A stretch of DNA of 64,000 bases from Corallococcus sp. Its GTDB lineage: Bacteria; Bacillota; Clostridia; Christensenellales; CAG-314. This document shows, in pieces, positions 602 to 42,949 of the stretch. A program made the position numbers and the translations under genes. Location of the stretch: contig JAMPAB010000002.1 in the NCBI GenBank assembly GCA_023667435.1, forward strand, positions 41,180 through 105,179, in the 5' to 3' direction. The notes beneath the pieces are model-generated. The model ran no database searches and was not told where the DNA came from. It saw only the letters and a list, made by a program, of their open reading frames with translations. How positions within the stretch are numbered: the first letter of the stretch is position 1; each line of letters opens with the position of its first letter.

Positions 602-787
602 ATGAAAAAACAAAAAATGATGACGCGAAAAATATCTTTGACGGTATTTTTTGCAACGGTTATCGCGCTTTGCATATTCGGACTTCTCCTCACTCAAATT
701 ATTTACGGGGATACGCTTGTTATGGGCGAAACTGCTAACGCAAGCGATACCCCCCCCGTCACGAAACTGCGGTTGAGTACGTTATAG
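602..787 (+). CDS. signal-peptide / N-terminal segment of the giant adhesin, separated from the body by a frameshift in a C8 tract
   Basis: ATG 602 has an SD. MKKQKMMTRKISLTVFFATVIALCIFGLLL reads as a basic n-region plus hydrophobic core. The frame ends at TAG 785-787, 28 nt after the C8 run. The body ORF frame opens at 739. Confidence 0.7.
   Translation: MKKQKMMTRKISLTVFFATVIALCIFGLLLTQIIYGDTLVMGETANASDTPPVTKLRLSTL
750..757 (+). repeat. C8 homopolymer at the junction of the two adhesin reading frames
   Basis: Direct count gives c750-c757. The frame-2 and frame-1 ORFs overlap only across 739-787. C9 or C6 would fuse them. The tract also forms the heptamer C_CCC_CCC in the upstream frame. 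Confidence 0.95.
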
Positions 788-894
788 GCGACCGTTCCGT
801 TTCGGGAGAATATGAGGAGATTTCCAAAACGGAATACCGCTACAAAGACCTTGCAAACGGTTACAACGCGGCGATTGCAAAGGCTTTCGAACTG

Positions 895-3800
895 TTGAGC
901 CAAAGCGACAGCGACAACAAATACGTGCGCGTTACGCTTGCAGATGACTGGACGGCTTCGCAGACGAATCTCGAAGGATGGACTTCGTTCGGAAGCGGAG
1001 AGGGCTTTTCGTCGGGAAGAATATTCGTACCGTACGACGCGAATATCGTGCTGGACTTAAACGGAAAAATCGTCAACCGTGATTTAAGCGAGTATTACGG
1101 AAAGAACCCCAACGGCAGCGTATTGTACGTAGAAGGCAACCTGATTGTCGAGGACGGCGCGCCTGCTGTCACACATACGATTGCCGGTTATCGTTACGAT
1201 TGGGACGAGGGGTACACCGTCTTCGATTCCGAAACCGTTAACGGCGGAGTTATTACCGGAGGCAAAGCAGCAACCGGCGGAGGAATAAACGTGGCCGATT
1301 ACGGTACGCTTACGCTGTGCGGAGGCAACGTATTCGGCAACTGCAGCACGGGCAACGGCGGAGGAATAGCGCTCGGCGATTACTGTTCGTTCGTAATGGA
1401 CGGCGGTAAAATTTGGTACAACAGCGCAGAACAGGGAGACAGAAACAACGGCGGAGGAATAAGCGCCGAATACTGCCGCATTATTATCAACGGCGGAACA
1501 ATTTCAAATAACTACGCCGATTCACGCGGCGGAGGAATTTATTCGTCCGCAAACGGTTCCAGCGAGGGATTCGATGAGACCGGCGCTGCCGCGTTCGCGA
1601 TTTACGGAGGCGAAATATCCGAGAACATATCCTCTGCCGAAGGAAGCGGTATTTACTACTCCCAAAACACCTGCATGATCGTCGGCGGATCCCTAGAATA
1701 TAATACGAGCCAGCGCAATTGGGCGGTGTACGGTTCGGGCGATTTGTACGTAGGCGGCAATGCCCGCATTGACAATAATAACTCTGATGAAGGGTATGGG
1801 GAAGAGTATATTTACGATTCCAACATAGGCTTGGCAACGGGCTGCTGCTTGCGCGTTACGGGCAGTTTTGAAGAAGGCGCGTTTTTTGCCGTATCCGACC
1901 CGACAATAGAGATTGTCAATTACGACAACTACGGCTATTCGTACGGTTCGGAAGAAACCGACGAGAACGGCAATCCGGTTGCGCAGCGCAATATCGACGA
2001 AGACGGACATCCCATCGATCCGACAACGTTTTTCGAGTACGACGAATACGACGGAATAAAATATAATATAACCCGCGTACAAAACGGCGCAGGCACGAGT
2101 TTGCCTCAGGCCTATTCGGGAACGCTGCGCGCTACAACCTACAACGTCATATGGTATCTATATCAGACGAACGAGGAAGGAACAGACGTGTCGAAAGTTA
2201 CTTACGGCAATCAATGTTACGAATCGGACAAAAACGCAACGGTAATACGTTATCCCGTTACAGAATACGGTACTTGGGAAAACAGATACAGAACGGGTAT
2301 TATGGCGAAAGTACTCGACGAAAACGACAACATAATAAACACGCTGGAGGCGGAAGTATACTATCCTTATCAAGGCACTCCCCGCAATTACGCGCCGTTT
2401 ACCACCTCCCACAACGACACATTGGAAACGGATCACCCGTACTCCGTAAGAATAAAGGTAAACGAAGAATACCTGTGGGTATCTCTCGATATTTACGCGA
2501 CGTCGATAGCGGACGCTGAGGTAACGGCGGAGATTCACGAAGATGCGAGATACTATCGGCTGGACGAAAATCTAAATGGGCGAATAAGCCTTACTGAAAA
2601 TGATTTCGATATAACGGTAACATTGAAGGACGGAACGGAGCTTACAAAAGGCGAGCATTATACCGTCAGTCTACCCAATCCGGATCCGAACGTCTACGAA
2701 AAGTTTTACGTTGAAATAAAGGGCATAAATACTTATAGCGGCACAAAGTCGTCAAACCTATTGTCTCTCGAAACAAACGAAAATCTCGAGTGTTATTTTG
2801 ACTACTGGCAAATTATAACTTACAATACCGATACAGAAAACATAGAGCGTACAAATTCCGAAACCAATCCGCATGTGATTGATTACGACTTCTACTATGC
2901 CGAAGAACAGCTGCTGGGAAGAAACTTTGCAAAAGACTTGAACGCTCACTGTTACTACAAAGTTGCCAATGCCGACGCTGACGACAATAGAAAATATGCC
3001 GCCAACGTATATTTTAATGCCGCTTCGGAAAACGGGGTCGCATTCGATATTTACAAGAAAGTCGAAGGAAAATGGACGCTTCTCGACGGCAACGAAATAA
3101 TAGGCATCGGCGAATATAAAATAGAACTTAGCACAAACAAGGTTTCTACCCCAAATGCGATGATTAGAGAAACTACTTTCAAACCGTTTTATCTAACCGT
3201 TAACCCGCTTGAGATAGATTCAGTATTATCCGTCGTCGATGGCGACAAAGGAGGATCAGGCGCGAAACTTAACGACGCGCTGAAGATATACTACAACGGC
3301 GACAACCTCGCCGACGTGTTGAAAAAGGATGACGCTTACATCAGTAACGGAGTAACGACGGTGTTGACGGAAGACGGCGATACCGTATACGTTTACTACA
3401 ACGGCAACAAAATGAACGTCAAAATAAGCGACAGCTTGGAGATCCAAAGACTTCCGTATAGGGAAGACGGCGAATGGCAGTACAAATGGTTACTTGTCAA
3501 AGATATCGGCAAAGCGTATATTACTCACAGCATAGGAGACGAAACGGGTATTGCCGGCGAGTCGGAAACCCTAACGCTAATCACCACAACGGTCAGAATA
3601 GAATTTGAGAACTTTATATTTGAGGTGCAACGCGAAGTCGAAGTAGAAAATGACGGCGAAGTTACAGTCGAAACCGTAACCGAATACGTAAACTACTTAG
3701 AAACGACGTTTAACTGGGCGATAGTAACTGCCTGCAACAACGTTCTCGGCGAGGACGATAAAGCGTATACGCCCGTAAAAAACGGCGGAGAAACGCCTAA

Positions 3801-6800
3801 AATAGAATACGGCGACGCGATCGACGTACCCAAAGCGCGCTACGGCGACGGAGTGATACTGCGCATTACAAAAGCCGACAACATTGACGAAAAATTCGTA
3901 GCGGTAGACGTATACGGTGCGACAGCGCTGTACGGTTACAGCGAAACGGCCGAAGGCAACTTGGGCGACAAAATCGGCAAAACGTTCGACGAATACGTTG
4001 CGGAGATTATCCGTAAAGGCGGCACGGGAAATTACAAACTTTACGCGCAGACGGCGGACTACACCGACAACGCAACGGGAATTAAGTATGTTTCCGCCGT
4101 ACAGGAATACGCTTTTACCGTTACCGCGCGCAATATCGGAAAGGAAGGAGAGGACATCAGAATAACCGTAACAGGCGAATACTCTTATACGGGCAGCCAA
4201 ATAACACCCGACGTTTACGTCTTAATAGACGGCATACCGTGCAAAGCAGGAGTCGACTACACCGTTTCTTACGGCGAAAACCTACTTGCGGGAACGAAAA
4301 CCGGCAGCATCACCGTAAATGGCACAGGCGTATATGAGGGAGAAAAGACGGTAGAGTTCGATATAGCGAAAGCCGCCAACAAGTGGACGATACTGAGTAT
4401 GTCCGTGTGGAATCACAATGCGTATAACGCGGACGAACACATTATAATATCCTACGCGCCCGTCGGACGCGACAGCGCGACGTACAAAATAGAAAAGTTC
4501 GAAGACAAACAGTGGAAATCGGTTGCAGGGCTGGAAGCTTTCAAAATAGACGCGAAAGGCAAGATCATAGACGATCAAGAAGGCGCAATCACCGACGCGC
4601 TTAACGGACTTCGCGACAAAAACAGACTTATCGCAACGATTGCAGAAAGCGACAACTACTACGGAGACACGACGGACTTCGAATTCGACATAGAAGCGCT
4701 GCAATCCTCTTACGCCGCGCCGCAGCTTATGCACTTGACGACGGGCGCAGGCAAGAACGACGTTTATACGGGACATATCCTGTCGATAGGTATTCAAAAC
4801 TACAATCCTACGGGAATGAAAGCGGAATTGGACGACGGACTTACGCTCGAAGGCAACGTACTGTACGCAACCGACGCGGGAACGTACACGGTAACGATTA
4901 CGCTGACGGGCGAGGACAGCGTTTGGAGCGACGGTTACGAAGGAGTAAGCCGAACGTTCACGTGGACTGTAAACAAACAAAAGGTTACCATACCCGCTTA
5001 CGGAGTTCGTTTACTTACGTACAACGGACAGGCGCAAACATATTTACCCGCAGGATTTGACTCGGCGACGATGGAAATATCCGAAAATACGGGAACGAAT
5101 GCGGACACGTACACCGCTGTTATAAAGTTGAAAGATACCGACAACTACGAGTGGGCAAATAACGCACAGGGAGAAATTCCGTACGAATTCGAAATAAAAC
5201 AAGCAAACAACGAGTGGACTGCGCTGAGCATCACGGAATGGTACAGCAAACACTACGACGCGGCAGTCAACAGAATAGCAGCATCTGCGGCGTTCGGTTA
5301 CGCGCAGGCGACGTACAAAATAGAAACGTACGTCGGCGGAAGATGGACGGCGGTTGAAGACCTGAACGGATTCAAAATCGACGCGAACGGCAAAATCATA
5401 GACGACAAAAACGGCAAAATTACCGACGCTCTGAACAAACTTCGCGGACAGTACAGACTTACCGCAGCTATTGCGGAAAGCGACAACTTTACGGAAGCGA
5501 CCGATAGTTTCGAGTTTGAAATCGAAGTGCTGTTGACAACCTACGCAACGCCCCGTCTGCTGCTTTTGACGACGGGCGCAGGCAAAAACAACGCTTACAC
5601 GGGGCACGAACTGTCTATCGGCATACAGAACTTGAACCTTGAAGGAATGGATATCGAACTGAGCGCAAAGAACGGATTTTCGCGCGTAGGCGGTACGCTG
5701 TACGCAACCGAAGCGGGAACGTACACGGTAACAATCGAGCTGTCGAACGAGGACAGCGTTTGGAGCAACGGTACGTCAAACGCGATAACGTTGGAGTGGG
5801 TAATAAGAAAACAAACGGTTGCCGCGCCCGCTTACGGAGAAACGGTACTTACGTACACAGGAAGCGAGCAAACTTACTTGCCCGAAGGGTTCGACGATTC
5901 CGTTATGGAAATATCCGAAAATACGGGAACGAACGTAGCTCGGTACACGGCAACGATAAGTCTTAAAGACCCCGACAACTACGAATGGAGTTCCAACCCC
6001 GACGCTGCTGCGCGTTCGTACGTATTCGACATAACGAAAGCCATGAACCGCTACACCACTCTGAGCATAGCGACGTGGTATTACCGCGATTACAATCCCG
6101 ACGTCAACAGAATAGTTTTCGACGCGGCGTTCGGTCTTGTACAGGCAACGTACAAAATAGAAAAGTACGTTGACGAAACCTGGACGGACGTTGAAGGTTT
6201 GGAAGACTTTAAGCTTGATGCGGACGGCAACGTTATAGACGAGGGCGGCAAGATTGCCGAAATATTGAACGGACTTCGCGGCAAATACAGACTTACCGCC
6301 GTAATAGAAGGAAACGACAATTACAGCGAAATAACCGCAACTTCTTACGAATTCAGTATCGTAATTCTGCCTACGAAGTACGACACGCCCGAACTTATGT
6401 ATCTGACGGCGGGCATAGGCAAAAACGACGTTTACACGGGACACGTTCTGTCGATAAGTATTCAGAACTTTAACATTGCCGGAATGGATATCGACCTGAG
6501 CGAGGGACTGACGATCGAAGGAAACGTGCTATACGCGACGAACGCGGGCACCTATACCGCTACGATTACTCTGTTGAGCGACGACAGCGAATGGGGCGAC
6601 GGACTGGGCGGAAACAGCAGAACGTTTACCTGGACGATCGGCAAAATAAAAGTTGCCGTGCCCGATTACGGAACGACGAAGCTTTCGTACAACGGAAGCG
6701 AACAGACGTACCTGCCGAAAGGGTTTGACGCGGCGACAATGGAAATATCCGACAATACGGGAACGGACGCCGACACGTACACGGCGAAAGTAAGACTTAA

Positions 6801-7092
6801 AGACCCCGTCAATTACGAGTGGGATAACCCCGACTACGGCGTGGAAATCCCCTATCAATTCGAAATAGAAAGCGCGACAAGGTTGTTTATAACGATCGTG
6901 TGCATACTTGCCGCCGCTGCGGCGGTTGCCGCGTTTGCCGCGCTTGCGCAATGGCTGATGCACAGACAACGCTTGAAAGTATTCGCAATGGCGAACGAAA
7001 CGGATAGCGACGAGAACGACGGCGAAGACGTTGACGGTGAAGAAGAAAACGAAAACGACGTTGAAGAACACGACGAAGGAGGTAACGAGTAA
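895..7092 (+). CDS. giant surface adhesin-like protein body (2,065 aa as tracked; frame open from 739)
   Basis: The N-terminal third has repeated GGGI/GGG-type turns (ATGGGINV, NGGGIALGD, NNGGGISAEY, SRGGGIYS, GSGIYYS), typical of PMP-like right-handed beta-helices. Three ~277-aa tandem repeats follow. A C-terminal TM helix (LFITIVCILAAAAAVAAFAALAQWL) is followed by a poly-acidic tail. The tracked start is a TTG without an SD. Confidence 0.9.
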   Translation: MSQSDSDNKYVRVTLADDWTASQTNLEGWTSFGSGEGFSSGRIFVPYDANIVLDLNGKIVNRDLSEYYGKNPNGSVLYVEGNLIVEDGAPAVTHTIAGYRYDWDEGYTVFDSETVNGGVITGGKAATGGGINVADYGTLTLCGGNVFGNCSTGNGGGIALGDYCSFVMDGGKIWYNSAEQGDRNNGGGISAEYCRIIINGGTISNNYADSRGGGIYSSANGSSEGFDETGAAAFAIYGGEISENISSAEGSGIYYSQNTCMIVGGSLEYNTSQRNWAVYGSGDLYVGGNARIDNNNSDEGYGEEYIYDSNIGLATGCCLRVTGSFEEGAFFAVSDPTIEIVNYDNYGYSYGSEETDENGNPVAQRNIDEDGHPIDPTTFFEYDEYDGIKYNITRVQNGAGTSLPQAYSGTLRATTYNVIWYLYQTNEEGTDVSKVTYGNQCYESDKNATVIRYPVTEYGTWENRYRTGIMAKVLDENDNIINTLEAEVYYPYQGTPRNYAPFTTSHNDTLETDHPYSVRIKVNEEYLWVSLDIYATSIADAEVTAEIHEDARYYRLDENLNGRISLTENDFDITVTLKDGTELTKGEHYTVSLPNPDPNVYEKFYVEIKGINTYSGTKSSNLLSLETNENLECYFDYWQIITYNTDTENIERTNSETNPHVIDYDFYYAEEQLLGRNFAKDLNAHCYYKVANADADDNRKYAANVYFNAASENGVAFDIYKKVEGKWTLLDGNEIIGIGEYKIELSTNKVSTPNAMIRETTFKPFYLTVNPLEIDSVLSVVDGDKGGSGAKLNDALKIYYNGDNLADVLKKDDAYISNGVTTVLTEDGDTVYVYYNGNKMNVKISDSLEIQRLPYREDGEWQYKWLLVKDIGKAYITHSIGDETGIAGESETLTLITTTVRIEFENFIFEVQREVEVENDGEVTVETVTEYVNYLETTFNWAIVTACNNVLGEDDKAYTPVKNGGETPKIEYGDAIDVPKARYGDGVILRITKADNIDEKFVAVDVYGATALYGYSETAEGNLGDKIGKTFDEYVAEIIRKGGTGNYKLYAQTADYTDNATGIKYVSAVQEYAFTVTARNIGKEGEDIRITVTGEYSYTGSQITPDVYVLIDGIPCKAGVDYTVSYGENLLAGTKTGSITVNGTGVYEGEKTVEFDIAKAANKWTILSMSVWNHNAYNADEHIIISYAPVGRDSATYKIEKFEDKQWKSVAGLEAFKIDAKGKIIDDQEGAITDALNGLRDKNRLIATIAESDNYYGDTTDFEFDIEALQSSYAAPQLMHLTTGAGKNDVYTGHILSIGIQNYNPTGMKAELDDGLTLEGNVLYATDAGTYTVTITLTGEDSVWSDGYEGVSRTFTWTVNKQKVTIPAYGVRLLTYNGQAQTYLPAGFDSATMEISENTGTNADTYTAVIKLKDTDNYEWANNAQGEIPYEFEIKQANNEWTALSITEWYSKHYDAAVNRIAASAAFGYAQATYKIETYVGGRWTAVEDLNGFKIDANGKIIDDKNGKITDALNKLRGQYRLTAAIAESDNFTEATDSFEFEIEVLLTTYATPRLLLLTTGAGKNNAYTGHELSIGIQNLNLEGMDIELSAKNGFSRVGGTLYATEAGTYTVTIELSNEDSVWSNGTSNAITLEWVIRKQTVAAPAYGETVLTYTGSEQTYLPEGFDDSVMEISENTGTNVARYTATISLKDPDNYEWSSNPDAAARSYVFDITKAMNRYTTLSIATWYYRDYNPDVNRIVFDAAFGLVQATYKIEKYVDETWTDVEGLEDFKLDADGNVIDEGGKIAEILNGLRGKYRLTAVIEGNDNYSEITATSYEFSIVILPTKYDTPELMYLTAGIGKNDVYTGHVLSISIQNFNIAGMDIDLSEGLTIEGNVLYATNAGTYTATITLLSDDSEWGDGLGGNSRTFTWTIGKIKVAVPDYGTTKLSYNGSEQTYLPKGFDAATMEISDNTGTDADTYTAKVRLKDPVNYEWDNPDYGVEIPYQFEIESATRLFITIVCILAAAAAVAAFAALAQWLMHRQRLKVFAMANETDSDENDGEDVDGEEENENDVEEHDEGGNE
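4375..6870 (+). repeat. three in-frame tandem repeats of ~0.83 kb inside the adhesin gene
   Basis: Units start at about 4375 (ANKWTILS), 5203 (ANNEWTALS) and 6040 (AMNRYTTLS). Periods are 828 and 837 nt. The protein units are clearly homologous (…ATYKIE.…W..V.GLE.FK.DA.GKIIDD… GAGKN.VYTGH.LSIGIQN… TYLP.GFD..TMEISENTGT…). Confidence 0.85.
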
Positions 7093-14942: not shown

Positions 14943-14953
14943 CCCCCCCCCCC
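14943..14953 (-). repeat. G11 (C11 on + strand) tract in the SD position of the MBL gene
   Basis: Minus strand reads GAAC-G11-AAGCTATTT-ATG(14933). No other SD-like element lies between the upstream stop (14980) and the ATG. Confidence 0.95.
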
Positions 14954-16884: not shown

Positions 16885-16895
16885 CCCCCCCCCCC
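16885..16895 (-). repeat. G11 (C11 on + strand) tract filling the 20-nt gap between the patatin stop and the MBL start
   Basis: Minus strand reads TAA-CGT-G11-CGTGCT-ATG(16878). The tract is the only SD-like sequence in the gap. Confidence 0.95.
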
Positions 16896-16898
16896 ACG

Positions 16899-17738
16899 TT
16901 AACGTCGGCGTATTTGCAGTAACTCTTTTATTTCGTCCATCTTCGCCATTGCGGCGCGATAGCCTTCTTCAACCATTTCGTCGATATACGACAAACTGGT
17001 ATTTTTGTACTGCGACAGTTCGGGTTCTATCACGATATCGCTGTTGTGATACCCTTTGTACATAGTAGATTTCGTCGTTATATTCCACGTCGCGACAAGC
17101 GTGTCAACCAACTTGCGCGATTGCGTTCCTTTGCCGCGATTGTGATTCAAATCGACGCCGATAACGATTTCCGCGCCCATGCGGCGGCATACGTCGGCAG
17201 GCATATTGTTGAGCAGACCTCCGTCGACAAGCAGCATACCGTCTATTTCCACAGGTTTGAACAATGCCGGTACCGCGCACGATGCAGACACCGCCTGCGA
17301 AACGTTGCCCGAGTTAAGCACCACCTCGCGTCCTTCGGTAATATCCACCGCAACTGCGGCAAACGGCGTCGATAAGTCGTCGAACGTTTTGTCGCATAAC
17401 AGCTTGTCGGCAATTTTCGCTATGTTGGCAGACTCCGAACCGATTACGATGCGCGAATTGAGAACGTCTTTTCTGCGGACGTTTTTTCCTTCCTCTATAA
17501 TGTCGTCAAGAGAAACGCCAGCGCAATACATCGCGCCCATCAAGCTTCCAGCGCTTGTACCCGCAACGCAATCGAATCCGATGCGGTTTTCTTCGAACGC
17601 GCGCAGTACGCCTATATGCGCAAACCCTCTCGTTCCTCCGCCCGATAAGGCAAGTCCAAGTTTGAATTTCAACGGTATTTTGCCGTCGCTATTCAGTTTT
17701 TGTTGTTTACCGAAAATTTTCACTGATATATTATACAA
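16899..17738 (-). CDS. patatin-like phospholipase
   Basis: GLALSGGGTRGFAHIGVL (oxyanion GGG.RG), GTSAGS (nucleophile elbow) and DGG are present. The start is uncertain. The tracked TTG lies inside a TTGCCA-17-TATAAT promoter-like sequence, and a GTG 15 nt downstream has no SD. Confidence 0.8.
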   Translation of the reverse strand: MYNISVKIFGKQQKLNSDGKIPLKFKLGLALSGGGTRGFAHIGVLRAFEENRIGFDCVAGTSAGSLMGAMYCAGVSLDDIIEEGKNVRRKDVLNSRIVIGSESANIAKIADKLLCDKTFDDLSTPFAAVAVDITEGREVVLNSGNVSQAVSASCAVPALFKPVEIDGMLLVDGGLLNNMPADVCRRMGAEIVIGVDLNHNRGKGTQSRKLVDTLVATWNITTKSTMYKGYHNSDIVIEPELSQYKNTSLSYIDEMVEEGYRAAMAKMDEIKELLQIRRR

Positions 17739-17788
17739 TATAAAAACGGTTTTGGCAAGACCGACAATTCAGAATAACCGACTTTAAT

Positions 17789-17824
17789 AAAAAAAAAGAA
17801 TCCGTCGCCTAAGCTTGCGGATTC
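17789..17824 (-). terminator. rho-independent terminator after the 152-aa membrane protein gene
   Basis: GAATCCG (17798-17804) pairs with CGGATTC (17818-17824). On the minus strand it is followed by T9 (17789-17797). Confidence 0.75.
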
Positions 17825-17871
17825 TTTAAAACTGTCAAATAAATATTCGATTGTAAACGCGTTGCGTTCTT

Positions 17872-18330
17872 TTATTCCTGAGCGCTCGCGGAAGGAACTT
17901 CCTCGTTTGCCTTAGCGGCGTTTCTGAGTTGAATTGCGCCCACCAAATACAACACGGGGATAACCAAACCCAACAAAGCGGAGAACCATTGTCCGTAAAT
18001 GATGTCCATTATCGCCCCTATACCGCATACTACGATAACTACAATCGCCGTAATAAAGCAAGCCTTAGAGGACTTCTGCATAACGCCGATTACGCCTGCG
18101 GCAATGTAAGCAGCGGCATCGATAAGGTATACGACGCCCAGAATGATTATCATAAGACGCACAGCCGCTTCTATCGTTGCCGCATCCGCGCCCGAATCTT
18201 CGATCGCGCCGCCGATAATTCCCGAAACAAGGTCTCCCGCCGCGAAGAAAATCAACGCCATAAGGGCAAGAAAAGCGCCGCAGACAATCATTAAAATACT
18301 GGATACTTTAAGTAATTTGTTCTTTTCCAT
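17872..18330 (-). CDS. small polytopic membrane protein (about 4 TM), unknown function
   Basis: AAAGGAG lies 7 nt before the ATG. Four hydrophobic segments. It has its own promoter and terminator. Confidence 0.75.
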   Translation of the reverse strand: MEKNKLLKVSSILMIVCGAFLALMALIFFAAGDLVSGIIGGAIEDSGADAATIEAAVRLMIIILGVVYLIDAAAYIAAGVIGVMQKSSKACFITAIVVIVVCGIGAIMDIIYGQWFSALLGLVIPVLYLVGAIQLRNAAKANEEVPSASAQE

Positions 18331-18366
18331 AACAGTTACTCCTTTTTCTTTTTTAAGATTGTTTTA

Positions 18367-18396
18367 AGTATACCCCCCCCCGTATGCAAAAGTCAA
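18367..18396 (-). promoter_or_regulatory. sigma-A promoter whose spacer contains a G9 tract
   Basis: Minus strand reads TTGACT (18396-18391), then TTTGCATAC + G9 (an 18-nt spacer; G9 = 18381-18373), then TATACT (18372-18367). The ATG at 18330 lies ~37 nt further downstream. Confidence 0.65.
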
Positions 18397-18490
18397 GTAT
18401 TATCGTAAAATTTAAATACATTTTTTCGCTTTTAATCGACAGCGACGGCAAAGCAATCTACGTACAATAACGCTCGCGCTTGCTCGCGGC

Positions 18491-18544
18491 AAATAAAAAA
18501 CAGTCTGCGGTAAAACAGGTTTTTTCCCTAATTGCCGCAAACTG
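18491..18544 (-). terminator. terminator after rubrerythrin
   Basis: On the minus-strand RNA, CAGUUUGCGG pairs with CCGCAGACUG (10 bp including one G-U). The loop is long (24 nt). The hairpin is followed by UUUUUUAUUU. Confidence 0.55.
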
Positions 18545-18580
18545 CTTAAATATGTAAATAATTACGTTGATACGCTCGGA

Positions 18581-19123
18581 TTATTTCTTGAAATAACGGT
18601 TGTAAAGTCCTTCGAACGCTTTGCCGTGACGGGCTTCGTCGCGAGCCATTTCGTGAACGGTATCGTGAATAGCGTCGAGCCCTGCCGCCTTAGCGCGTTT
18701 TGCCAAATCAGTTTTGCCCATAGTAGCGCCGTTTTCCGCTTCGATACGCATAGCGAGGTTTTTGGCGGTGCTGTCCGTCACAACTTCTCCCAAAAGCTCG
18801 GCAAACTTAGCTGCGTGCTCCGCTTCTTCGTAAGCGGCTTTTTCCCAATACAAACCTATTTCGGGATAACCTTCGCGGAAAGCCACTCTCGCCATTGCAA
18901 GGTACATTCCCACCTCGCTGCATTCGCCGTTGAAATTAGCGCGAAGATCGTCCAAAATATCCTTAGACGCGCCTTTCGCGACGCCTACAACGTGCTCCGC
19001 CGCCCAGCTGAGTTCGCCCGCTTGCGCTACGAACTTTTCTTTGGGAGCTTTGCATTGAGGGCACGAAGTCGGAGCCTCGTTTCCTTCGTGAACATAACCG
19101 CATACAGAACATACAAATTTCAT
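18581..19123 (-). CDS. rbr: reverse rubrerythrin (N-terminal rubredoxin-like domain + ferritin-like diiron domain)
   Basis: The N-terminus has [10 protein letters not shown]....[11 protein letters not shown] (two CxxC pairs). It is followed by a four-helix diiron region with E..EH-type motifs ([21 protein letters not shown]). Confidence 0.9.
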
Positions 19124-20682: not shown

Positions 20683-20931
20683 ATGAAAGAATATATAACG
20701 GAACGCGTAACGGAAATAGCGCACTACCTTGTCGAAAACAAATGCACGGTAAGGGAAGTCGCCGACGTTTTCTGCGTGAGTAAATCCACCGCGCATAAAG
20801 ACCTGTCCGAGCGTTTGCCGCAGCTGGACAAAGAGCTCTACCTAAGCGCGTCGGATATCCTAAAAGAAAACTGGGACGAACGCTACGTACGCGGCGGCGA
20901 GGCCACAAAAAGAAAATTCAAAGAAAAATAA
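20683..20931 (+). CDS. spoIIID: sporulation transcriptional regulator SpoIIID
   Basis: The 82-aa sequence ...CTVREVADVFCVSKSTAHKDLSERLP......RGGEATKRKF matches my recollection of SpoIIID closely. Confidence 0.9.
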   Translation: MKEYITERVTEIAHYLVENKCTVREVADVFCVSKSTAHKDLSERLPQLDKELYLSASDILKENWDERYVRGGEATKRKFKEK

Positions 20932-23377: not shown

Positions 23378-26300
23378 ATGAAAGTTGAAACAAGACGAGT
23401 ATCCGTTGCGATACTGAGCGTAGTTTGCGCGCTATTTTTGATACTGGGCGTAACGCTGTTCGACACGAACAACGCTTTTCAGACGTATGCCGAAAGTGCG
23501 GAACAAATTACGTCTACATACTACTACGACCATCTTAAAAACTTAAACGGTAGCGACTACGCTATGGCAAAAGAGTTTTACGACATTTTAGACGAGTTGA
23601 ATACGACGGGCGACTTTAAAGACGGCGTAATCAACAAGGAATTAAGCGAGGTTTTGACGCCCGCAGAAATTGCAAGCTGGGTAGAAAACGGAAATCTCGA
23701 TATCCCCAAAGCGTTCGGCGCGGCAAGGGATTCCTATTACTACGATCACCCCGAATTGTTCTACGTGGATTTGTACAAACTCACGCTTAGCGCGGGACGC
23801 GTAAACGGAACGTACGTCGCGTACCTCGACTGCGGCACGGAAGCAGACTGCTATATGGATAACGGAGCTTTGACAAGCGAAACGGCCGTTAACAACGCAA
23901 TCGCTGCTTACGAGCAGAAAATCCAAACAATCGTAACCTACGTCAAGACGAGCGCCGCGCAAAACTCTTTCGGCACCGCGCAAGATATGCTGTGGGCAAA
24001 TTACGCTAACGAATACATTGCGGGACACGTCGAATACGACTACGAAGCATTAACTGCTGCAAACGCTTCCGAAAATTACAGCAAACCTTATATAGGCAAC
24101 GCTTACGGCGCGCTTATCGAAGGGAAATGCGTATGCAGCGGTTACTCGTTTGCGTATAAAGCAGTTATGGACGCATTGGATATTCCCTGCGTAATAGTAA
24201 GCGGAATAAGCATTGACAAAAGTACCGACGGCGTTACCGACAAAGGCGAAGCGCACAGTTGGAACTACGTTTGGCTGCAAGTTCCGCAGGACGACAACGT
24301 TGCAGAGGCGGTTGCTCTTGCGGATACGGCAACAGCGAAGAATTGCGCCTGGTACGCTTACGACGTTACGTGGAACAGTACCGGTTCGGACACCTCCGCT
24401 TACGTTAACATGAGCGCGTACACGGCAAGCGTAAATCATTTGGCAGATCCCGTCATATCCACGTCGGGATACAATATGCCTTACCCTGAACTGTCCGCCT
24501 ATAATTACGGCGCGGCAACGGTAGAAAGCGACTTTTACCACAGCAGCGCGTATACTCCCTACGGCAACGAAACGGACAACAGCGGCAATCCTCTTATGCA
24601 ATACGTTACGTACGTCAGTTACAAAGGCAAAGGCGCTATCGCTCTGTTGGAAGACGGACTGCACATTGTTTACCGTCATTATGCTTACAACGACGACACA
24701 AACGAAATGTATTGGACGGCATGGTGCGATATAGGCAATATGTACAAGGATACACTGGGAATGACAGAGGAAGACGAAGGAAATCAAACGTACGCGCCCA
24801 TAGCCTACAACTGCATGTATACGCAATTTGCGGTGGTAGATATCGAACCCGATATCAACTACAATCCTGACGATAAAATTCTCACAACTTCTCACACGAA
24901 TTTCTATTACAGCAAGGACAATGCGGATTTCGGCGAACACACTGTATACATTTCTCCGTTGTACACAAACAAAGCTTTCGGAACGTACACCGCCGCGCCT
25001 TACGTTGTAAGCACTACTCCGCGCCATACGGGAGTTGTAACGATCAACGACTCGATGGGCGACGGAACGGGATCGGTTGCCGACAGCAAAGCGTTTGAAA
25101 TCAGCGTGACTTACGACGAAAACCTGCACGTTTTGGACAGCAGCAAACCTATCGGCATCGAATTCGTTTCGAGCTTTGCGAATATCGATAGATACGCGGG
25201 ATTCGTCGCGTATGAAGACGGTTCGTACGTAAAAATCGTAAACGGCAACACGTTGACGTTTAAATTCAAACCCAGTCTTATGTACGAACACAACAGCGAG
25301 TTGTACTCTTTCTACTTCTCCAACGTAGGTTCGACCAAACTGATGCCTAACGGAAACACGTCCGACAAACTGCCCAATCCTGCGCACTTCCACTTTGCAA
25401 GAAGCTATATGCAGTGCCCGTTGATTTTGGGACACGGCAAACTTTGGATAGATTGCTGCGCGCAACCGACGCTTGTAAGCAACTCCGACCTTGCGGCGAT
25501 GGATTTCAAAGACCCCGACGGAAACTCAACGTTCTCCGAACAGGCGCGCAGTCAGATGATGCTCGTTGCCGAATCCGTCAAACCCGAAGTAGAGAGCGCG
25601 ATGCTTTCGGAAATCAACAAGAGCGGACTTAAAACAAAGGATATCAAAGCAAGCGAAACGTACGACATCAACCTGCAAATCTGCGGCAAATATCCCGTAA
25701 TACCCGACGGCAGTTACGTTAAAATAGCTCTCGGATTCCCCGAAGGTTACGGCCCCGAAGACGAAGGCGTCACATTTAAGCTGTATCACCGCAAACACGT
25801 TTCCGGCGATAAATATATCATAGAAGAAGTACCCTGCGTAGTAACGCAGTTAGGAATAGTAGCTACTGTTACAAGCTTCTCGCCTTACATGGTTGTAGCT
25901 GCCGACGCTAAGACGGTTTCGGCAAACAAGACAATTTACGCTACAATCGACGGAAAAGGCGGAACGCTCAGCCGCGAAGACGGAAAAGTTCAAACCTTAT
26001 CGGGGGGGGCGACGTATACTTACACCGTTACGCCCGATGAAGGATACGGCATTTACAAAGTAATGCTCAACGGACAAGACGTAACGAGCAGCGTTCAAAA
26101 CGGCAAACTGACCGTCGGTTACGACGATTTGCTCAACAACAACGAGCTTGTAATCAAGTATATTTCCGACGTTGCGGCGCAGCGTTACGCGGCGAACGAC
26201 TTTGAGATCGTAGACCCCGTTACCGTCGTCGTATCGACAAAGGGCGAAGCAAGCATAGCCAAACCGAGCGCAGAGTTGGCAATCAACACAATTACGCCTG

Positions 26301-26419
26301 CTCCCTCGAACAACGCCGCGATTATCGTTATCGTATGCGTGGCGGTTGCAGTTGTTGCTGCGGCGTGCATAGTTGCGTTTATCCTTATTAAACGCAAACG
26401 CAACAACGCGGAAAAATAA
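23378..26419 (+). CDS. large surface protein with a transglutaminase-like cysteine-protease core and a C-terminal TM anchor
   Basis: N-terminal signal/anchor. The core reads GKCVCSGYSFAYKAVMDALDIPCVIVSG ... GEAHSWNYVWL ... WYAYDVTWN (Cys-His-Asp pattern). The C-terminus is AAIIVIVCVAVAVVAAACIVAFILIKRKR. Confidence 0.85.
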   Translation: MKVETRRVSVAILSVVCALFLILGVTLFDTNNAFQTYAESAEQITSTYYYDHLKNLNGSDYAMAKEFYDILDELNTTGDFKDGVINKELSEVLTPAEIASWVENGNLDIPKAFGAARDSYYYDHPELFYVDLYKLTLSAGRVNGTYVAYLDCGTEADCYMDNGALTSETAVNNAIAAYEQKIQTIVTYVKTSAAQNSFGTAQDMLWANYANEYIAGHVEYDYEALTAANASENYSKPYIGNAYGALIEGKCVCSGYSFAYKAVMDALDIPCVIVSGISIDKSTDGVTDKGEAHSWNYVWLQVPQDDNVAEAVALADTATAKNCAWYAYDVTWNSTGSDTSAYVNMSAYTASVNHLADPVISTSGYNMPYPELSAYNYGAATVESDFYHSSAYTPYGNETDNSGNPLMQYVTYVSYKGKGAIALLEDGLHIVYRHYAYNDDTNEMYWTAWCDIGNMYKDTLGMTEEDEGNQTYAPIAYNCMYTQFAVVDIEPDINYNPDDKILTTSHTNFYYSKDNADFGEHTVYISPLYTNKAFGTYTAAPYVVSTTPRHTGVVTINDSMGDGTGSVADSKAFEISVTYDENLHVLDSSKPIGIEFVSSFANIDRYAGFVAYEDGSYVKIVNGNTLTFKFKPSLMYEHNSELYSFYFSNVGSTKLMPNGNTSDKLPNPAHFHFARSYMQCPLILGHGKLWIDCCAQPTLVSNSDLAAMDFKDPDGNSTFSEQARSQMMLVAESVKPEVESAMLSEINKSGLKTKDIKASETYDINLQICGKYPVIPDGSYVKIALGFPEGYGPEDEGVTFKLYHRKHVSGDKYIIEEVPCVVTQLGIVATVTSFSPYMVVAADAKTVSANKTIYATIDGKGGTLSREDGKVQTLSGGATYTYTVTPDEGYGIYKVMLNGQDVTSSVQNGKLTVGYDDLLNNNELVIKYISDVAAQRYAANDFEIVDPVTVVVSTKGEASIAKPSAELAINTITPAPSNNAAIIVIVCVAVAVVAAACIVAFILIKRKRNNAEK
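26002..26009 (+). repeat. in-frame G8 tract ~410 nt before the stop, upstream of the membrane anchor
   Basis: TTA TCG GGG GGG GCG reads LSGGA. Direct count gives g26002-g26009. Confidence 0.95.
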
Positions 26420-37921: not shown

Positions 37922-37954
37922 GTGTCGTTCTCATTTAGGGGACGGCACTTTTTT
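37922..37954 (+). terminator. intrinsic terminator inside the leader, 8 nt upstream of the SD (attenuator candidate)
   Basis: GUGUCGUUC (37922-37930) pairs with GGACGGCAC (37940-37948), 9 bp including two G-U pairs, with a 9-nt loop. It is followed by T6 (37949-37954), then GGAGG (37962-37966) and ATG 37973. Confidence 0.6.
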
Positions 37955-37972
37955 AATACTCGGAGGCAAACT

Positions 37973-40900
37973 ATGAGGAAAAAACTAAGTATAGCGTTGT
38001 TATTATTTGTGACGTTAATAGCCTCGCTTACGTTAGTTGGCTGTAAGCATAAGCATAACTATACCGTACAGTCGGTAACCGAACCCACCTGTACGGAGCG
38101 CGGTTACACAACATACGTATGCGACGGCTGTGACGACACTTACAAAGATAACTACGTCGAAATAAAACCGCACACGCCTCAAACAGCCACAAACGAAAAC
38201 GTTGTAACGGCGGACTGTACTCACGCAGGCGGTTACGACGAAGTGATTCGCTGTAAGGATTGCAATGTTATAATGTCTACTACTCATCATAACGTTGAAA
38301 CGACTTTGCATACGCTCAAGGGACCTACGCGAGAGAGCGTAGTTGAGCCCACTTGTTCTACGTTCGGCAGTTATGATGAAGTCATATATTGTAGCGACTG
38401 CAACGCAATACTTTCGTCTACGCCTAAAACAATAGATAAACTTCCGCACACGCCCGAAGAAAATTGGATAATAGACCGTAATGCTACTTGTACCGTCAAG
38501 GGTTCAAAGCATTTAGAATGTTCCGTTTGTCATACAACGTTACAAACGGAAAGCATACCAACAACCGAACATAAATACGGAGCATGGACTATTAACTCCG
38601 ATGCCCACCGGCGCACATGTTCAACATGCAAAAGCGTTGAAAGTGGCAACCATAATATGGCAAATGAACATTGTACAGTCTGTAACTATTATGAAAAAGA
38701 CTATTCTCAATTGTTTGACTTTGTGCTTGTAGACGGAGAATACGTTGTAACGCGTTACAAGGGTACTGATACTATCGTGACTGTTCCGTCTCGCTACAAT
38801 GGCAAAGATATTACAACTATCAAGGCAAACGCATTTAGCGCTTGCGGATACTATATTACAGATTTAATAATTGAAAAAGGCATAACTACTATCGAGGAAG
38901 GCGCTTTAATCGGGTGCTCCGCATTACGTACGCTGTCATTGCCTCAGTTAAACTGTCATTTTGCCAAACTTTTTGATATGTCTTCTACTACGCTTTCTGT
39001 TGCACAAAGCGATATATATCCAAGCGCAGTTGATTCTTATACGATAAAAGTTAATGGGGTAAACCGCATTTTTGGTATACCGAGAGACGGTTGTTCGTGG
39101 TATTACAACGGTACATTATCCGACGGTAGAATTTATTGCAACGACGAATTGACCGTTTTGTCAAGCAAACAAACATACGAAACTACCGTCGGCGTATATT
39201 GGACGCTGCCTACGTCTGTAAGAATAAAGTATTATCAATTGCCAACTTACTTCAAAAAACTAACTATAACCGATGAGGCAATTTCGTTAAACAACAGTAA
39301 ACTGTCGGGCTGCTCGGACTACGAAATAGAAATACAACGGGTTGAAATTAAAACCATTACAATAGCAGACGTAGTATCTTACATTGATGAATTTGATGTA
39401 AACAATTATTCGTTTACGGTCAAATATACGAACGATACTTCTAATACCGTAAATGACGTATTTAACTATATTGAGAATGACAACAAGGCGTTATTGTCAA
39501 CCGTTGGAGAACACGAATTGTCGCTATGTTTTGAAGGTGTAACATTTAAATGGAATCTCACTCTTAATAATCATACGTTTAGTAATAATGTACAACTAAC
39601 ATCTCAATCTTATTACTACGACGGCGACAGTAAGTCATTGGCGGTTGAAAACTTGCCTGATGGCGCAAACGTGCAGTATATCAACAACGGACAAACGGAA
39701 ATTGGTGTTTATGATATTACTGCTACAATAACAAAGCCGTACTACGATGATTTGCAATTGCAAGCGACTCTAACGATAAAACAAGACGTTTACAGCATTA
39801 CTTACAACAATCTTAACGGAGTTGAAAACAACAACCCCGACACGTTCAATGCGTCTAAAGGACTTGTATTGAACAATTTGGAAAAATTAAATTATGTATT
39901 TGTAGGTTGGTACAAAGACAGTCAATTCAAAACAAAAATAGAAAGTATTCCTCTTGAAACTGAAGAAAATATAACTCTTTATGCGCAATGGAAAAGCATA
40001 TTCCAGTTAAGCGGAAACTCTATTGTCGGTATTACCGATTATGGCAAGACGTATACCGAAATTATAATCGATCCTATTATTGAAGGAGTTAATATAAGAC
40101 AAATTGGCGAATCTGCTTTTGCAAATTGCAAGGCAATGACAAAAATTACAATTCCCGACACTATAACGACAATAGGCGCTTCGGCTTTTGCAAATTGCAA
40201 TAAATTAATAAAAATTGATTTTAAGGGAGAAATAGCAGACTGGTGCAATATAAGTTTTGGTAATAGCAGTGCTAATCCCCTGTACTATGCACATAATTTG
40301 TACGTAAATGGCGAACTTGTAACGGAGTTAGAAATACCCGACGGTGTAACCGAAATAAAGAATTGCGCATTTTGCGGTTGTACAAGCATAACAAGTGTAA
40401 CAATACCAGATAGCGTACAGTCAATAGGCTATTACGCGTTCGATAATTGCGGCAACCTAATAGCGGTTTACTATACTGGAGTAATAGCAGATTGGTGTAA
40501 TATTAGTTTTGGCGGTTACGGTGCAAATCCGTTGTACTATGCTCACAACTTGTACATAAATAACGAAATAATATCCGGAGATATAGTAATGCCCAACGGC
40601 GTTACTACCATACCGAGTTACACTTTCAAAAACAGTGCAATTACAAGCATAACAATACCAAACAGCGTTACATCAATAGACGGTTATGCGTTTGACTCTT
40701 GTAATAATTTAACTGCTGTATACTACGCAGGAACAGTAGGAGATTGGTGCAAAATTAATATTAACAGCAATCCGATGTCCTATGCTCAAAACTTATATAT
40801 AAATAACGAAATAATATCTGGTGATATAGTACTCCCTGATGGTGTTACTACTATACCGATGTACACTTTCAAAAATAGTACTATAACGAGTATAACGATA

Positions 40901-42949
40901 CCTAATAGTGTCAAAACGATAGGTGGTTTTGCATTTCAAAATTGTAACTGTCTAACTGGCATTACGGTTCCTAACAGTGTGACGTCAATAGGCAGTTCCG
41001 CTTTTAGCGGTTGTAGCAGTTTGGAAAGCATAACGTTGCCGTTTGTGGGCGGATCAAGAAAAACTGCGAGCGCTGCCTATCAATATCCGTTTGGATATAT
41101 ATTTGGAACAAGCAGTTATACTGGCGGAGTGGAAACTGAGCAACGATATTACGGTCCCATTATAAACGGAAATGTATATACTGAAATTACTAATTACTAT
41201 ATTCCATTGACGCTAAAATCCGTAACGATAACGGGCGGTAATATACTTTACGGCGCGTTCTATGGTTGTAGTGGACTAACAAGCACTACGGTATCTGACA
41301 GTGTTACATTGATAGCAGGTTTCGCATTCTATGATTGCAATAACCTAACAAGCATAACAATGGGTAAAAGCGTAACGTCGATAGTTGGCAATGCGTTCGT
41401 TGGTTGTGATAGTCTAGCAACGGTATACTATACTGGCTCAATAGCCGACTGGTGCAATATAAGTTTTGGAAATAATTATGCTAATCCATTGTACTATGCT
41501 CACAACTTGTATATAAATAACGAACTTGTAACGAAGTTGGATATACCCGACGGCGTAACCGAAATAAAGGATTACGCATTTTCTGGTTGTGCAAGTATAA
41601 CAAGCGTAACAATCCCTGACAGCATTAAATGGATAGGTAAGAATGCCTTTTACAAGTGTACTAGTTTAATATGTGCATCAATCAGAAACGGTTTAAAGAC
41701 AATAGGGGAAAATGTATTTAGTTGCAGTGGTCTTACGAGCATTATAATTCCTGACAGCGTAACATCAATAGGTGAGGCCGCGTTCTCTAGTTGCAATAGT
41801 CTGGCTAGTGTAATTATTGGCAACGGTGTTAGGACAATAGATGATGTTGCGTTTGCTAGCTGCCGTAGTCTGATAAACGTAACGATAGGCAACAGCGTTA
41901 CTTCGATAGGTGTTGATGCATTCTATTATTGCATTAGGTTAGTTGAAGTGTACAATTTGTCGCGTCTAACTATTGTTGCCGGTTCAATTGATAACGGATA
42001 TGTGGCAAGTTATGCCAAGATAGTCCATACTTCTGCAAACGAAGCAAGTAAACTAACCACGACAGCCGACAATTATTTATTCTACGCTGATGACAAAAAT
42101 GTCTATCTTATAGGCTACATTGGCAATGAAACGGAGTTGATTTTGCCAAATAATTTCAATGACCGTCCTTACGCAATAAATAAATATGCGTTTGCCAAGA
42201 ACGATAGTTTAACAAGTATAACAATTCCAGATAGCGTCACGTCGATAGGCAGTTACGCATTCGAAGGTTGCAGTAACTTAACAAACATCATAATTCCCGA
42301 CAGCGTAATATCACTACAATCTGCATTTGGTGGTTGTAGTAGTTTACAATATAATGAGTATGATAATGCACTGTATCTAGGCAATACTAACAACCCGTAC
42401 TTAGTACTGTTCAAGGCAAAAAATACAGATATAACTACTTGCGAAATAAACGAGAATACAAAGATTATATACAGCTCAGCGTTCTATAATTGCAGTAAAC
42501 TTACAAGCATTACAATTCCTAATAGTGTTACGTCAATAAACGATGGTGCGTTTTCTTATTGTAGTAATCTAATTAGTATAAAATTCGGGAACAACGTGGT
42601 ATCAACGGGCTATCAAACATTTGCTTATTGCAGAAGTTTAACAAGCATAGCATTAGGCAACAACGTAAATGTGATAGGTAATTATGCGTTTTGTGGTTGC
42701 AGCAACCTAACAAGCATAATAATTCCCGAAAGTGTAACGTCAGTAATTGCTGGCGCATTCTATGACTGCAGTAGTCTAAAATCAGTGTACTACAAGGGGA
42801 ATGCGAACACTTGGGCGAAAATTAGTTTAAGCAGTAGTGACAATGCCAATTTGATTGCGGCTGCGAAATACTATTATAGCGAAACACAACCAACAACCAG
42901 CGGCAGATATTGGCACTATGACGACAATGGGGATATCGTTGTTTGGTAA
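37973..42949 (+). CDS. giant (1,658-aa) BspA-type leucine-rich-repeat lipoprotein with N-terminal Cys-rich repeats
   Basis: I trimmed the start to ATG 37973 (MRKKLSIALLLFVTLIASLTLVGC has a lipobox). There are 4-5 PTC...G......C..C units, then dozens of LRR_5-like units (ITIP.SVTSIG..AF..C..LTSI). Composition is markedly AT-richer than neighbouring genes. Confidence 0.88.
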   Translation: MRKKLSIALLLFVTLIASLTLVGCKHKHNYTVQSVTEPTCTERGYTTYVCDGCDDTYKDNYVEIKPHTPQTATNENVVTADCTHAGGYDEVIRCKDCNVIMSTTHHNVETTLHTLKGPTRESVVEPTCSTFGSYDEVIYCSDCNAILSSTPKTIDKLPHTPEENWIIDRNATCTVKGSKHLECSVCHTTLQTESIPTTEHKYGAWTINSDAHRRTCSTCKSVESGNHNMANEHCTVCNYYEKDYSQLFDFVLVDGEYVVTRYKGTDTIVTVPSRYNGKDITTIKANAFSACGYYITDLIIEKGITTIEEGALIGCSALRTLSLPQLNCHFAKLFDMSSTTLSVAQSDIYPSAVDSYTIKVNGVNRIFGIPRDGCSWYYNGTLSDGRIYCNDELTVLSSKQTYETTVGVYWTLPTSVRIKYYQLPTYFKKLTITDEAISLNNSKLSGCSDYEIEIQRVEIKTITIADVVSYIDEFDVNNYSFTVKYTNDTSNTVNDVFNYIENDNKALLSTVGEHELSLCFEGVTFKWNLTLNNHTFSNNVQLTSQSYYYDGDSKSLAVENLPDGANVQYINNGQTEIGVYDITATITKPYYDDLQLQATLTIKQDVYSITYNNLNGVENNNPDTFNASKGLVLNNLEKLNYVFVGWYKDSQFKTKIESIPLETEENITLYAQWKSIFQLSGNSIVGITDYGKTYTEIIIDPIIEGVNIRQIGESAFANCKAMTKITIPDTITTIGASAFANCNKLIKIDFKGEIADWCNISFGNSSANPLYYAHNLYVNGELVTELEIPDGVTEIKNCAFCGCTSITSVTIPDSVQSIGYYAFDNCGNLIAVYYTGVIADWCNISFGGYGANPLYYAHNLYINNEIISGDIVMPNGVTTIPSYTFKNSAITSITIPNSVTSIDGYAFDSCNNLTAVYYAGTVGDWCKININSNPMSYAQNLYINNEIISGDIVLPDGVTTIPMYTFKNSTITSITIPNSVKTIGGFAFQNCNCLTGITVPNSVTSIGSSAFSGCSSLESITLPFVGGSRKTASAAYQYPFGYIFGTSSYTGGVETEQRYYGPIINGNVYTEITNYYIPLTLKSVTITGGNILYGAFYGCSGLTSTTVSDSVTLIAGFAFYDCNNLTSITMGKSVTSIVGNAFVGCDSLATVYYTGSIADWCNISFGNNYANPLYYAHNLYINNELVTKLDIPDGVTEIKDYAFSGCASITSVTIPDSIKWIGKNAFYKCTSLICASIRNGLKTIGENVFSCSGLTSIIIPDSVTSIGEAAFSSCNSLASVIIGNGVRTIDDVAFASCRSLINVTIGNSVTSIGVDAFYYCIRLVEVYNLSRLTIVAGSIDNGYVASYAKIVHTSANEASKLTTTADNYLFYADDKNVYLIGYIGNETELILPNNFNDRPYAINKYAFAKNDSLTSITIPDSVTSIGSYAFEGCSNLTNIIIPDSVISLQSAFGGCSSLQYNEYDNALYLGNTNNPYLVLFKAKNTDITTCEINENTKIIYSSAFYNCSKLTSITIPNSVTSINDGAFSYCSNLISIKFGNNVVSTGYQTFAYCRSLTSIALGNNVNVIGNYAFCGCSNLTSIIIPESVTSVIAGAFYDCSSLKSVYYKGNANTWAKISLSSSDNANLIAAAKYYYSETQPTTSGRYWHYDDNGDIVVW

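Follow-up and report, generated by a model that had tools for sequence, protein, structure and literature searches.

The gene of a 152-aa four-TM membrane protein in the analysed window (the whole stretch of DNA studied here; 64,000 nt, GC 45.6%) is preceded by a predicted promoter whose hexamers are conserved in nine lineages and in whose spacer a G9 tract fills 9 of the 18 positions, the porA-type geometry described in the original prediction. The comparisons given below make this promoter G9 a plausible but unproven slippage-driven dimmer of expression; the type of mechanism is already known, and the host lineage is unusual. With modest confidence, set a little above even, we read the site as a promoter-spacer contingency locus of the porA/fetA/tp0126 type that would undergo graded phase variation. 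Points in favour of graded phase variation include the conserved promoter, an indel confined to the tract, the instability of sister tracts, a C8 frameshift tract and published precedents.

The promoter, its conservation and the gene it precedes

The features of the locus are as follows.

17786..17827, minus strand: intrinsic terminator of the 152-aa gene, 10-bp stem and U9 (RNA folding, dG -21 kcal/mol, z -3.5)
17872..18330, minus strand: coding sequence of the 152-aa four-TM membrane protein, a distant DUF4064 relative (ORF, homologues, hydropathy profile)
18331..18366, minus strand: leader, with the block TAAAAYAATCTTAAA and the Shine-Dalgarno sequence AAAGGAG at 18339-18345 (sequence; alignment)
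18367..18372, minus strand: -10 hexamer TATACT, the same in all nine lineages (sequence and consensus scan)
18373..18381, minus strand: G9 homopolymer (C9 on the plus strand), candidate slippage site (sequence; lineage comparison)
18373..18390, minus strand: promoter spacer of 18 nt, TTTGCATAC plus G9 (sequence; lineage comparison)
18391..18396, minus strand: -35 hexamer TTGACT, TTGACA in lineage L026 (sequence and consensus scan)
18492..18547, minus strand: intrinsic terminator of the upstream rubrerythrin gene, 13-bp stem and U6 (RNA folding, z -3.8)

All elements named in the original prediction, from TTGACT, the 18-nt spacer with G9 and TATACT to AAAGGAG, the ATG and the 152-aa four-TM ORF, were recovered on the minus strand at the positions given for them. 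The arrangement TTGACT-18-TATACT agrees with the consensus at 10 of 12 positions, the distance from the -10 hexamer to the ATG (18330) is 36 nt, and we infer a transcription start near 18360. Near-consensus hexamers, a spacing in the 16-18 nt range, the distance to the Shine-Dalgarno sequence and ATG, and conservation among orthologues place the site among promoters of the sigma-70/sigma-A type. The 152-aa gene is an insulated monocistronic unit with terminators on both sides, and the terminator of the rubrerythrin gene shields the promoter from read-through.

Taken alone, the hexamers are at chance level, as a consensus scan of 1.8 kb returned 4 promoter-like sites against 2.3 +/- 1.8 in shuffled sequences. 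Comparative data were obtained from about 17 relatives of the 152-aa protein, which share 54-67% identity with it and are all metagenomic. The contigs of nine other family members were fetched; seven of these include the promoter region and, with the window and a second assembly of the same species, make up nine lineages. Synteny is kept, the order being rubrerythrin or IspD, the small TM protein, patatin and a Big_3/metallo-beta-lactamase gene. The sequences CTTGAC and TATACT and the leader block AAAA-A--CTTAAA are invariant in the nine-lineage alignment, and the longer leader block TAAAAYAATCTTAAA is nearly so; the spacer has a single invariant column out of 18. The invariance of hexamers and leader while the spacer sequence diverges, and not the consensus score, strongly indicates that the hexamers form a real promoter that is in use, as had been predicted.

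Eight of the nine lineages have an 18-nt spacer, with or without a tract (TTTTAACGTTGCAAGAGG, TTTGCATATTGTGAGGGG, TTTACTTGTCGCGCGGGT, TTTGCTTATTGCGGGGCG, TAGGCATACGGGGGAGGG and three G9 forms), and L038 has one of 17 nt. This argues that 18 nt is the native geometry and that G9 would be the normal expressed state rather than a detuned, sub-optimal one. The view that 17 nt (G8) is the optimum, with G9 one slip away from it, does not agree with this distribution.

The leader block (18346-18366 on the minus strand, with the same block in L002-L040) is more conserved than either the spacer or the Shine-Dalgarno region, and may reflect an operator or a constraint on the initial transcribed region. 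RNA folding gave no stable fold for the leader, and an Rfam scan of 17700-18700 returned no known RNA element, its only match being a sub-threshold one to McaS on the terminator. The PerR-rubredoxin-rubrerythrin genes upstream prompted a search for a Fur/PerR operator in the leader. This candidate was rejected: the 7-1-7 box TTATAATnATTATAA needs 4 mismatches and was not recovered at up to 3, and the number of such boxes across the window is within the chance range (12 versus 8.8 +/- 3.2).

The 152-aa protein has hydrophobic segments at about residues 12-30, 59-77, 90-108 and 115-133. A Pfam search with it returned no match, the gathering threshold of PF13273 not being reached, and 9 of 16 family members gave weak, sub-threshold DUF4064 matches (best E 0.012). 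A family profile aligned by hhalign with the PF13273-annotated protein P0018 gave a probability of 98.3% (E 1.6e-14). These profile comparisons indicate that the family is related to DUF4064 (PF13273) and is not a formal member of it. The only characterised DUF4064 protein found in a literature search was AuxB of Staphylococcus aureus, which was shown experimentally to have four TM segments and coordinates cell-envelope processes (PMC12505970). The window protein is likewise a small four-TM membrane protein of Bacillota; AuxB, however, has a long cytoplasmic tail that is missing in the window protein, and its function is not transferable.

One MAG record with this protein is labelled 'Corallococcus sp.' (Myxococcota) and the other 'Bacillota bacterium'. 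The former name seems to be a taxonomic error, in view of the GC content of the window (45.6%) and of its genes for SpoIIID (20683..20931), rubrerythrin, a regulator of the Fur family and giant BspA-type LRR proteins. Putative surface proteins of very large size are frequent in the window, at 37922-42949 (plus strand), 53253-56894 (minus strand) and 59079-63986 (minus strand); among them are BspA-type proteins with leucine-rich repeats, one of 1675 aa and one of 1213 aa, and an ORF of 1635 aa that has no annotation.

The G tract in the nine lineages

The comparison of homologous loci proposed in the original prediction gave the following series at the position of the tract.

Window and second assembly (L001): G9, 18-nt spacer
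L026 (protein 67% identical; TTGACA-AGAGTATAC-G9-TATACT): G9, 18-nt spacer
L040: G9, 18-nt spacer
L038: G8, 17-nt spacer
L039: GGGGGAGGG, with one interruption, 18-nt spacer
Remaining four lineages: mixed but G-rich sequence (GTGAGGGG, GCGGGGCG, GCGCGGGT, CAAGAGG)

The G8 of L038 is the sole indel in the promoter core across the nine lineages, and it lies inside the tract. Variation in tract length, which had been anticipated, is therefore seen in this one 17-nt version, but not between the two assemblies of the species or in two other species, all of which have G9. Pure runs of G8-9 are present in four lineages whose proteins are mutually 57-64% identical, and a midpoint-rooted neighbour-joining tree of the proteins has tract-bearing lineages on either side of its root. 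A distribution on both sides of the root would mean either that the tract is ancestral and decayed twice or that it was gained repeatedly.

Spacer positions 1-5 have diverged among the tract-bearing lineages, and the G run is pure in four of the five. That the run stays pure despite the divergence of positions 1-5 favours its maintenance, although the sample is small and the adjacent ATAC is also conserved. This ATAC, directly 5' of the tract, is indeed invariant in the tract-bearing lineages, and the base adjoining the -10 hexamer is G in eight of the nine lineages. Such conservation could also be expected if the run were a sequence-specific cis element, either a regulator site or a rigid G.C segment that tunes the geometry or melting of the promoter, and were kept for this reason rather than for its mutability. 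In agreement with this, the ATAC-G8/9-TATAC block contains two GTATAC/GCATAC hexamers that flank the run, and conservation extends beyond the tract, to ATAC on the 5' side and to TATACTTAAAA and the leader on the 3' side. However, four tract-less lineages combine the same -35 and -10 hexamers, leader and gene with quite different spacers, so that the G run is dispensable for promoter function. Moreover, the length of the tract is either G8 or G9, an A interrupts it in one lineage, the comparison with known motifs gave no match and the Fur/PerR box failed. We consider a cis element of this kind unlikely.

Searches of larger collections did not extend the series. Neither a DNA pattern of the conserved promoter nor the protein-alignment pattern A1 matched in genome_contigs, a species-representative collection from which the family seems to be absent. 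Scans of metagenome_contigs with the promoter pattern and with ATACGGGG..TATACTTAAAAYAATCTTAAA returned no match, and missed even the JGI contig L026.

Long G/C runs in the window and their instability

G/C runs of lengths 3 to 7 occur 603, 107, 12, 1 and 0 times in the window, followed by two runs of 8, one of 9 and two of 11. Five runs of at least 8 were thus observed where 0.04-0.16 are expected, and for runs of at least 9 the expectation is about 0.03; the G9 run is far beyond chance. The distribution of G/C run lengths in the window is bimodal, whereas A/T runs decay smoothly. This bimodality points to a threshold length above which runs expand unchecked, or else to selection acting on long tracts. 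All five tracts of at least 8 are located at genes of envelope or surface proteins. The four besides the promoter G9 are as follows.

750-757, plus strand: C8, at the junction of a signal-anchor frame (ATG 602) and the body of a 2065-aa ORF, in region 602-7092
14943-14953, minus strand: G11, at the Shine-Dalgarno position 9 nt upstream of an ATG (14933), with no other Shine-Dalgarno sequence
16885-16895, minus strand: G11, at the Shine-Dalgarno position in the 20 nt that separate the patatin stop (16899) from an ATG (16878)
26002-26009, plus strand: G8, in frame in ORF 23378..26419 (transglutaminase-like protein, 1013 aa), shortly before the part that encodes the C-terminal membrane anchor

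Instability was assessed by comparison with an independent NCBI assembly of the same species (GCA_023664405.1, contig JAMPFP010000044.1), the 152-aa protein having two NCBI accessions (MCM1194871.1 and MCM1533149.1). An exact look-up of the window's rubrerythrin found no record and that of the patatin led to the same second assembly only; as the look-ups yielded no further strains, the species is represented by two assemblies only. The 4454 aligned columns contain 2 substitutions and 3 indels, and every indel is in a homopolymer: from the window to the second assembly, A6 becomes A5, the G11 at 16885-16895 becomes G10 and the G11 at 14943-14953 becomes G9. Judging from this alignment, it is evident that the genome changes fastest at its long G/C runs, with the reservation that consensus homopolymer lengths may contain errors. 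The promoter tract shows no length difference within the species. As to the other changes, the A6/A5 indel is at 18520-18525 (minus strand), in the loop region of the rubrerythrin terminator, and an A/G substitution at 18511, in the stem of that terminator, is compensable.

The gene that follows the G11 at 16885-16895 encodes a 632-aa Big_3/metallo-beta-lactamase lipoprotein, and the one that follows the G11 at 14943-14953 a 465-aa membrane protein with a metallo-beta-lactamase fold, for which L026 has GCGGAGAG at the corresponding place. Both G11 tracts replace the ordinary GGGGA/GAGGA Shine-Dalgarno sequence of relatives. Their 3' edge, and hence the spacing to the ATG, is the same in both assemblies, and their changes in length probably have little effect. 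Because these tracts vary while the spacing to the ATG is fixed, the expansion of G-rich seeds seems possible in this lineage even where no switching function is evident.

The promoter tract could have a similar origin, as a mutational by-product without a role in switching: G-rich seeds in non-coding DNA would expand by biased slippage to G8-11, and purifying selection would hold the spacer at 17-18 nt by removing length variants, which would make the tract a liability of the promoter and not a regulator of it. We regard this as possible but doubtful. It would account for the G-rich sequence that the tract-less relatives have at the same position, for the two Shine-Dalgarno sites at which the short G-rich motifs of relatives have become G11 with lengths that vary freely between assemblies, and for the presence of G9 at the promoter in both assemblies. 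A neutral tract should, on the other hand, gain interruptions like the distal spacer, yet it is pure in four divergent lineages and only that of L039 is interrupted. Nor does a by-product predict the preference of the tracts for genes of envelope proteins, including an N-terminal frameshift position and a site upstream of a C-terminal anchor. Even in this case, slippage would still yield heritable variation in expression.

The two tracts inside coding sequence are relevant in this respect. A C9 at 750-757 would restore a stop-free ORF of 2163 aa that encodes an acidic tail and a TM segment at the C-terminus, and with C8 the gene has the appearance of a frameshift contingency locus that is switched OFF. 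When the C9-repaired N-terminus of this giant protein was used to look for an in-frame (ON) copy in the second assembly, only distant matches (27-36% identity) were returned, some of them with Chlam_PMP repeats. At 26002-26009, a change to G7 or G9 would end the protein at about residue 887-894, with loss of the anchor, making the G8 a candidate site of C-terminal phase variation.

Homopolymers are error-prone, and the G11/G10/G9 differences between the assemblies could partly be consensus errors. An assembly or sequencing artefact, either a homopolymer miscall or poly-G from two-colour chemistry, is nevertheless highly improbable as the source of the promoter tract, which is situated inside long contigs with coherent flanks and recurs in independent NCBI, JGI and Logan data from five lineages. 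What speaks for it, besides the error rate, is that the contigs of two family members, L037 and L041, end at or near the tract: that of L037 starts at the last G and that of L041 starts 6 nt after the -10 hexamer. Assemblies thus tend to break at the promoter poly-G, with heterogeneity, read trimming or loss of coverage as possible causes. We set these breaks aside as evidence of heterogeneity, since L037 keeps one G, as would be expected of read trimming or loss of coverage more than of a G8/G9 bubble.

Proposed mechanism and comparison with known systems

In the contingency-locus reading that we prefer, a promoter of the sigma-A type with a G9 tract as half of its spacer would drive the monocistronic gene of a DUF4064-like four-TM envelope protein. 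Because long G runs are length-unstable in this organism, slippage is expected at the promoter tract as well. Replication slippage there would generate sub-populations with G8 (17 nt) and G10 (19 nt), together with rarer variants, and each change in length would shift the distance and rotational phasing between the -35 and -10 hexamers and thereby the level of transcription, in a heritable and reversible manner. As for sigma-70-type promoters in general, activity would be expected to fall progressively at spacers of 19 nt or more and of 16 nt or less. The expressed states would be G9 and G8, with G10 or more and G7 or fewer progressively weaker, so that the tract would act as a dimmer and not as a strict switch. 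Slippage at the promoter tract, its effect on transcription and its adaptive value are what we infer here.

Graded control is more likely than clean ON/OFF control, because the hexamers are near-consensus and spacers of 17 and 18 nt are both consensus states. Of the independent ON/low/OFF unit that had been put forward, the independence holds, the gene being monocistronic between two terminators, but the clean ON/OFF states give way to graded ones. A single slip may alter expression only modestly, since 17 and 18 nt are both in the normal working range. The presence of G9 in three of the four lineages with an uninterrupted tract could reflect either a fairly stable tract or the purging of variants.

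A more far-reaching reading is that this gut lineage, which has sporulation genes, uses poly-G contingency in four ways, through promoter spacing (G9), ribosome binding (G9-11 replacing the Shine-Dalgarno sequence), N-terminal frameshifting (the 2163-aa Pmp-like surface protein) and loss of a C-terminal anchor (the transglutaminase-like protein). Selection for mutability would then have kept the promoter tract in species with proteins that share only ~60% identity. We put this forward tentatively, and think that it would probably not hold in full. If true, it would constitute an unusually old contingency locus for its phylum; in Bacillota, phase variation through repeats is considered a minor mechanism next to DNA inversion.

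Should the tract slip and tune transcription, the range of contingency loci of the classic pathogen type would come to include an uncultured gut commensal of the Bacillota that is known only from MAGs, and this would imply that the DUF4064-like protein and the other tract-linked envelope proteins are under fluctuating selection, for example by phage, immunity or envelope stress. The lineage series (G9 in three, G8 in one, interrupted in one and degenerate in four) is a natural construct set on conserved mutability. Homopolymer lengths in MAG consensus sequences of this lineage are informative and should not be 'polished' away.

Promoter tracts that set spacing, and thereby give ON/OFF or graded expression of surface proteins, include the poly-C of Bordetella pertussis fim2/fim3 and the poly-A of Mycoplasma hyorhinis vlp. 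The fim tract lies between the site of an activator (BvgA) and the -10 element, and the vlp tract consists of A in a very AT-rich genome. In contrast to Bordetella fim, no activator dependence is evident here.

Closer in geometry are Neisseria meningitidis porA (poly-G) and N. gonorrhoeae fetA/frpB (poly-C), in which a tract of about 9-14 nt between the -35 and -10 elements results in graded expression (PMC5320596; discussed in PMC7864442). As here, a G/C homopolymer is placed in the spacer of a sigma-70-type promoter of an envelope protein, and these genomes also have frameshift-type and C-terminal tracts, as the window appears to have. The Neisseria species, however, are Gram-negative pathogens in which switching has been shown experimentally and the length of the promoter tract differs from strain to strain, whereas the present locus belongs to an uncultured, spore-former-type member of the Bacillota in which the promoter tract is G9 in both assemblies compared. 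Furthermore, the native spacing here is 18 nt and not 17, and the product is a small inner-membrane four-TM protein instead of a porin or receptor.

Treponema pallidum provides another set of precedents. The OmpW homolog gene tp0126 and the genes tprL and tprE,G,J have promoter poly-G tracts of about 8-11 nt, which in tp0126 lie between the -35 and -10 elements, with an optimum at 17 nt; one length dominates in most molecules, that of tprL being about 81% G9 with minorities of G8 and G10 (PMC7864442). Fragment-length analysis, 5'-RACE and GFP reporters were used in that work, and tract length affects reporter activity (PMC7864442). Those loci have fragment-length, 5'-RACE and reporter support, and the present one that of sequence comparison. 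The likeness extends beyond the single promoter: many poly-G tracts are found at envelope genes across the T. pallidum genome, and the tracts of the window are also located at envelope genes.
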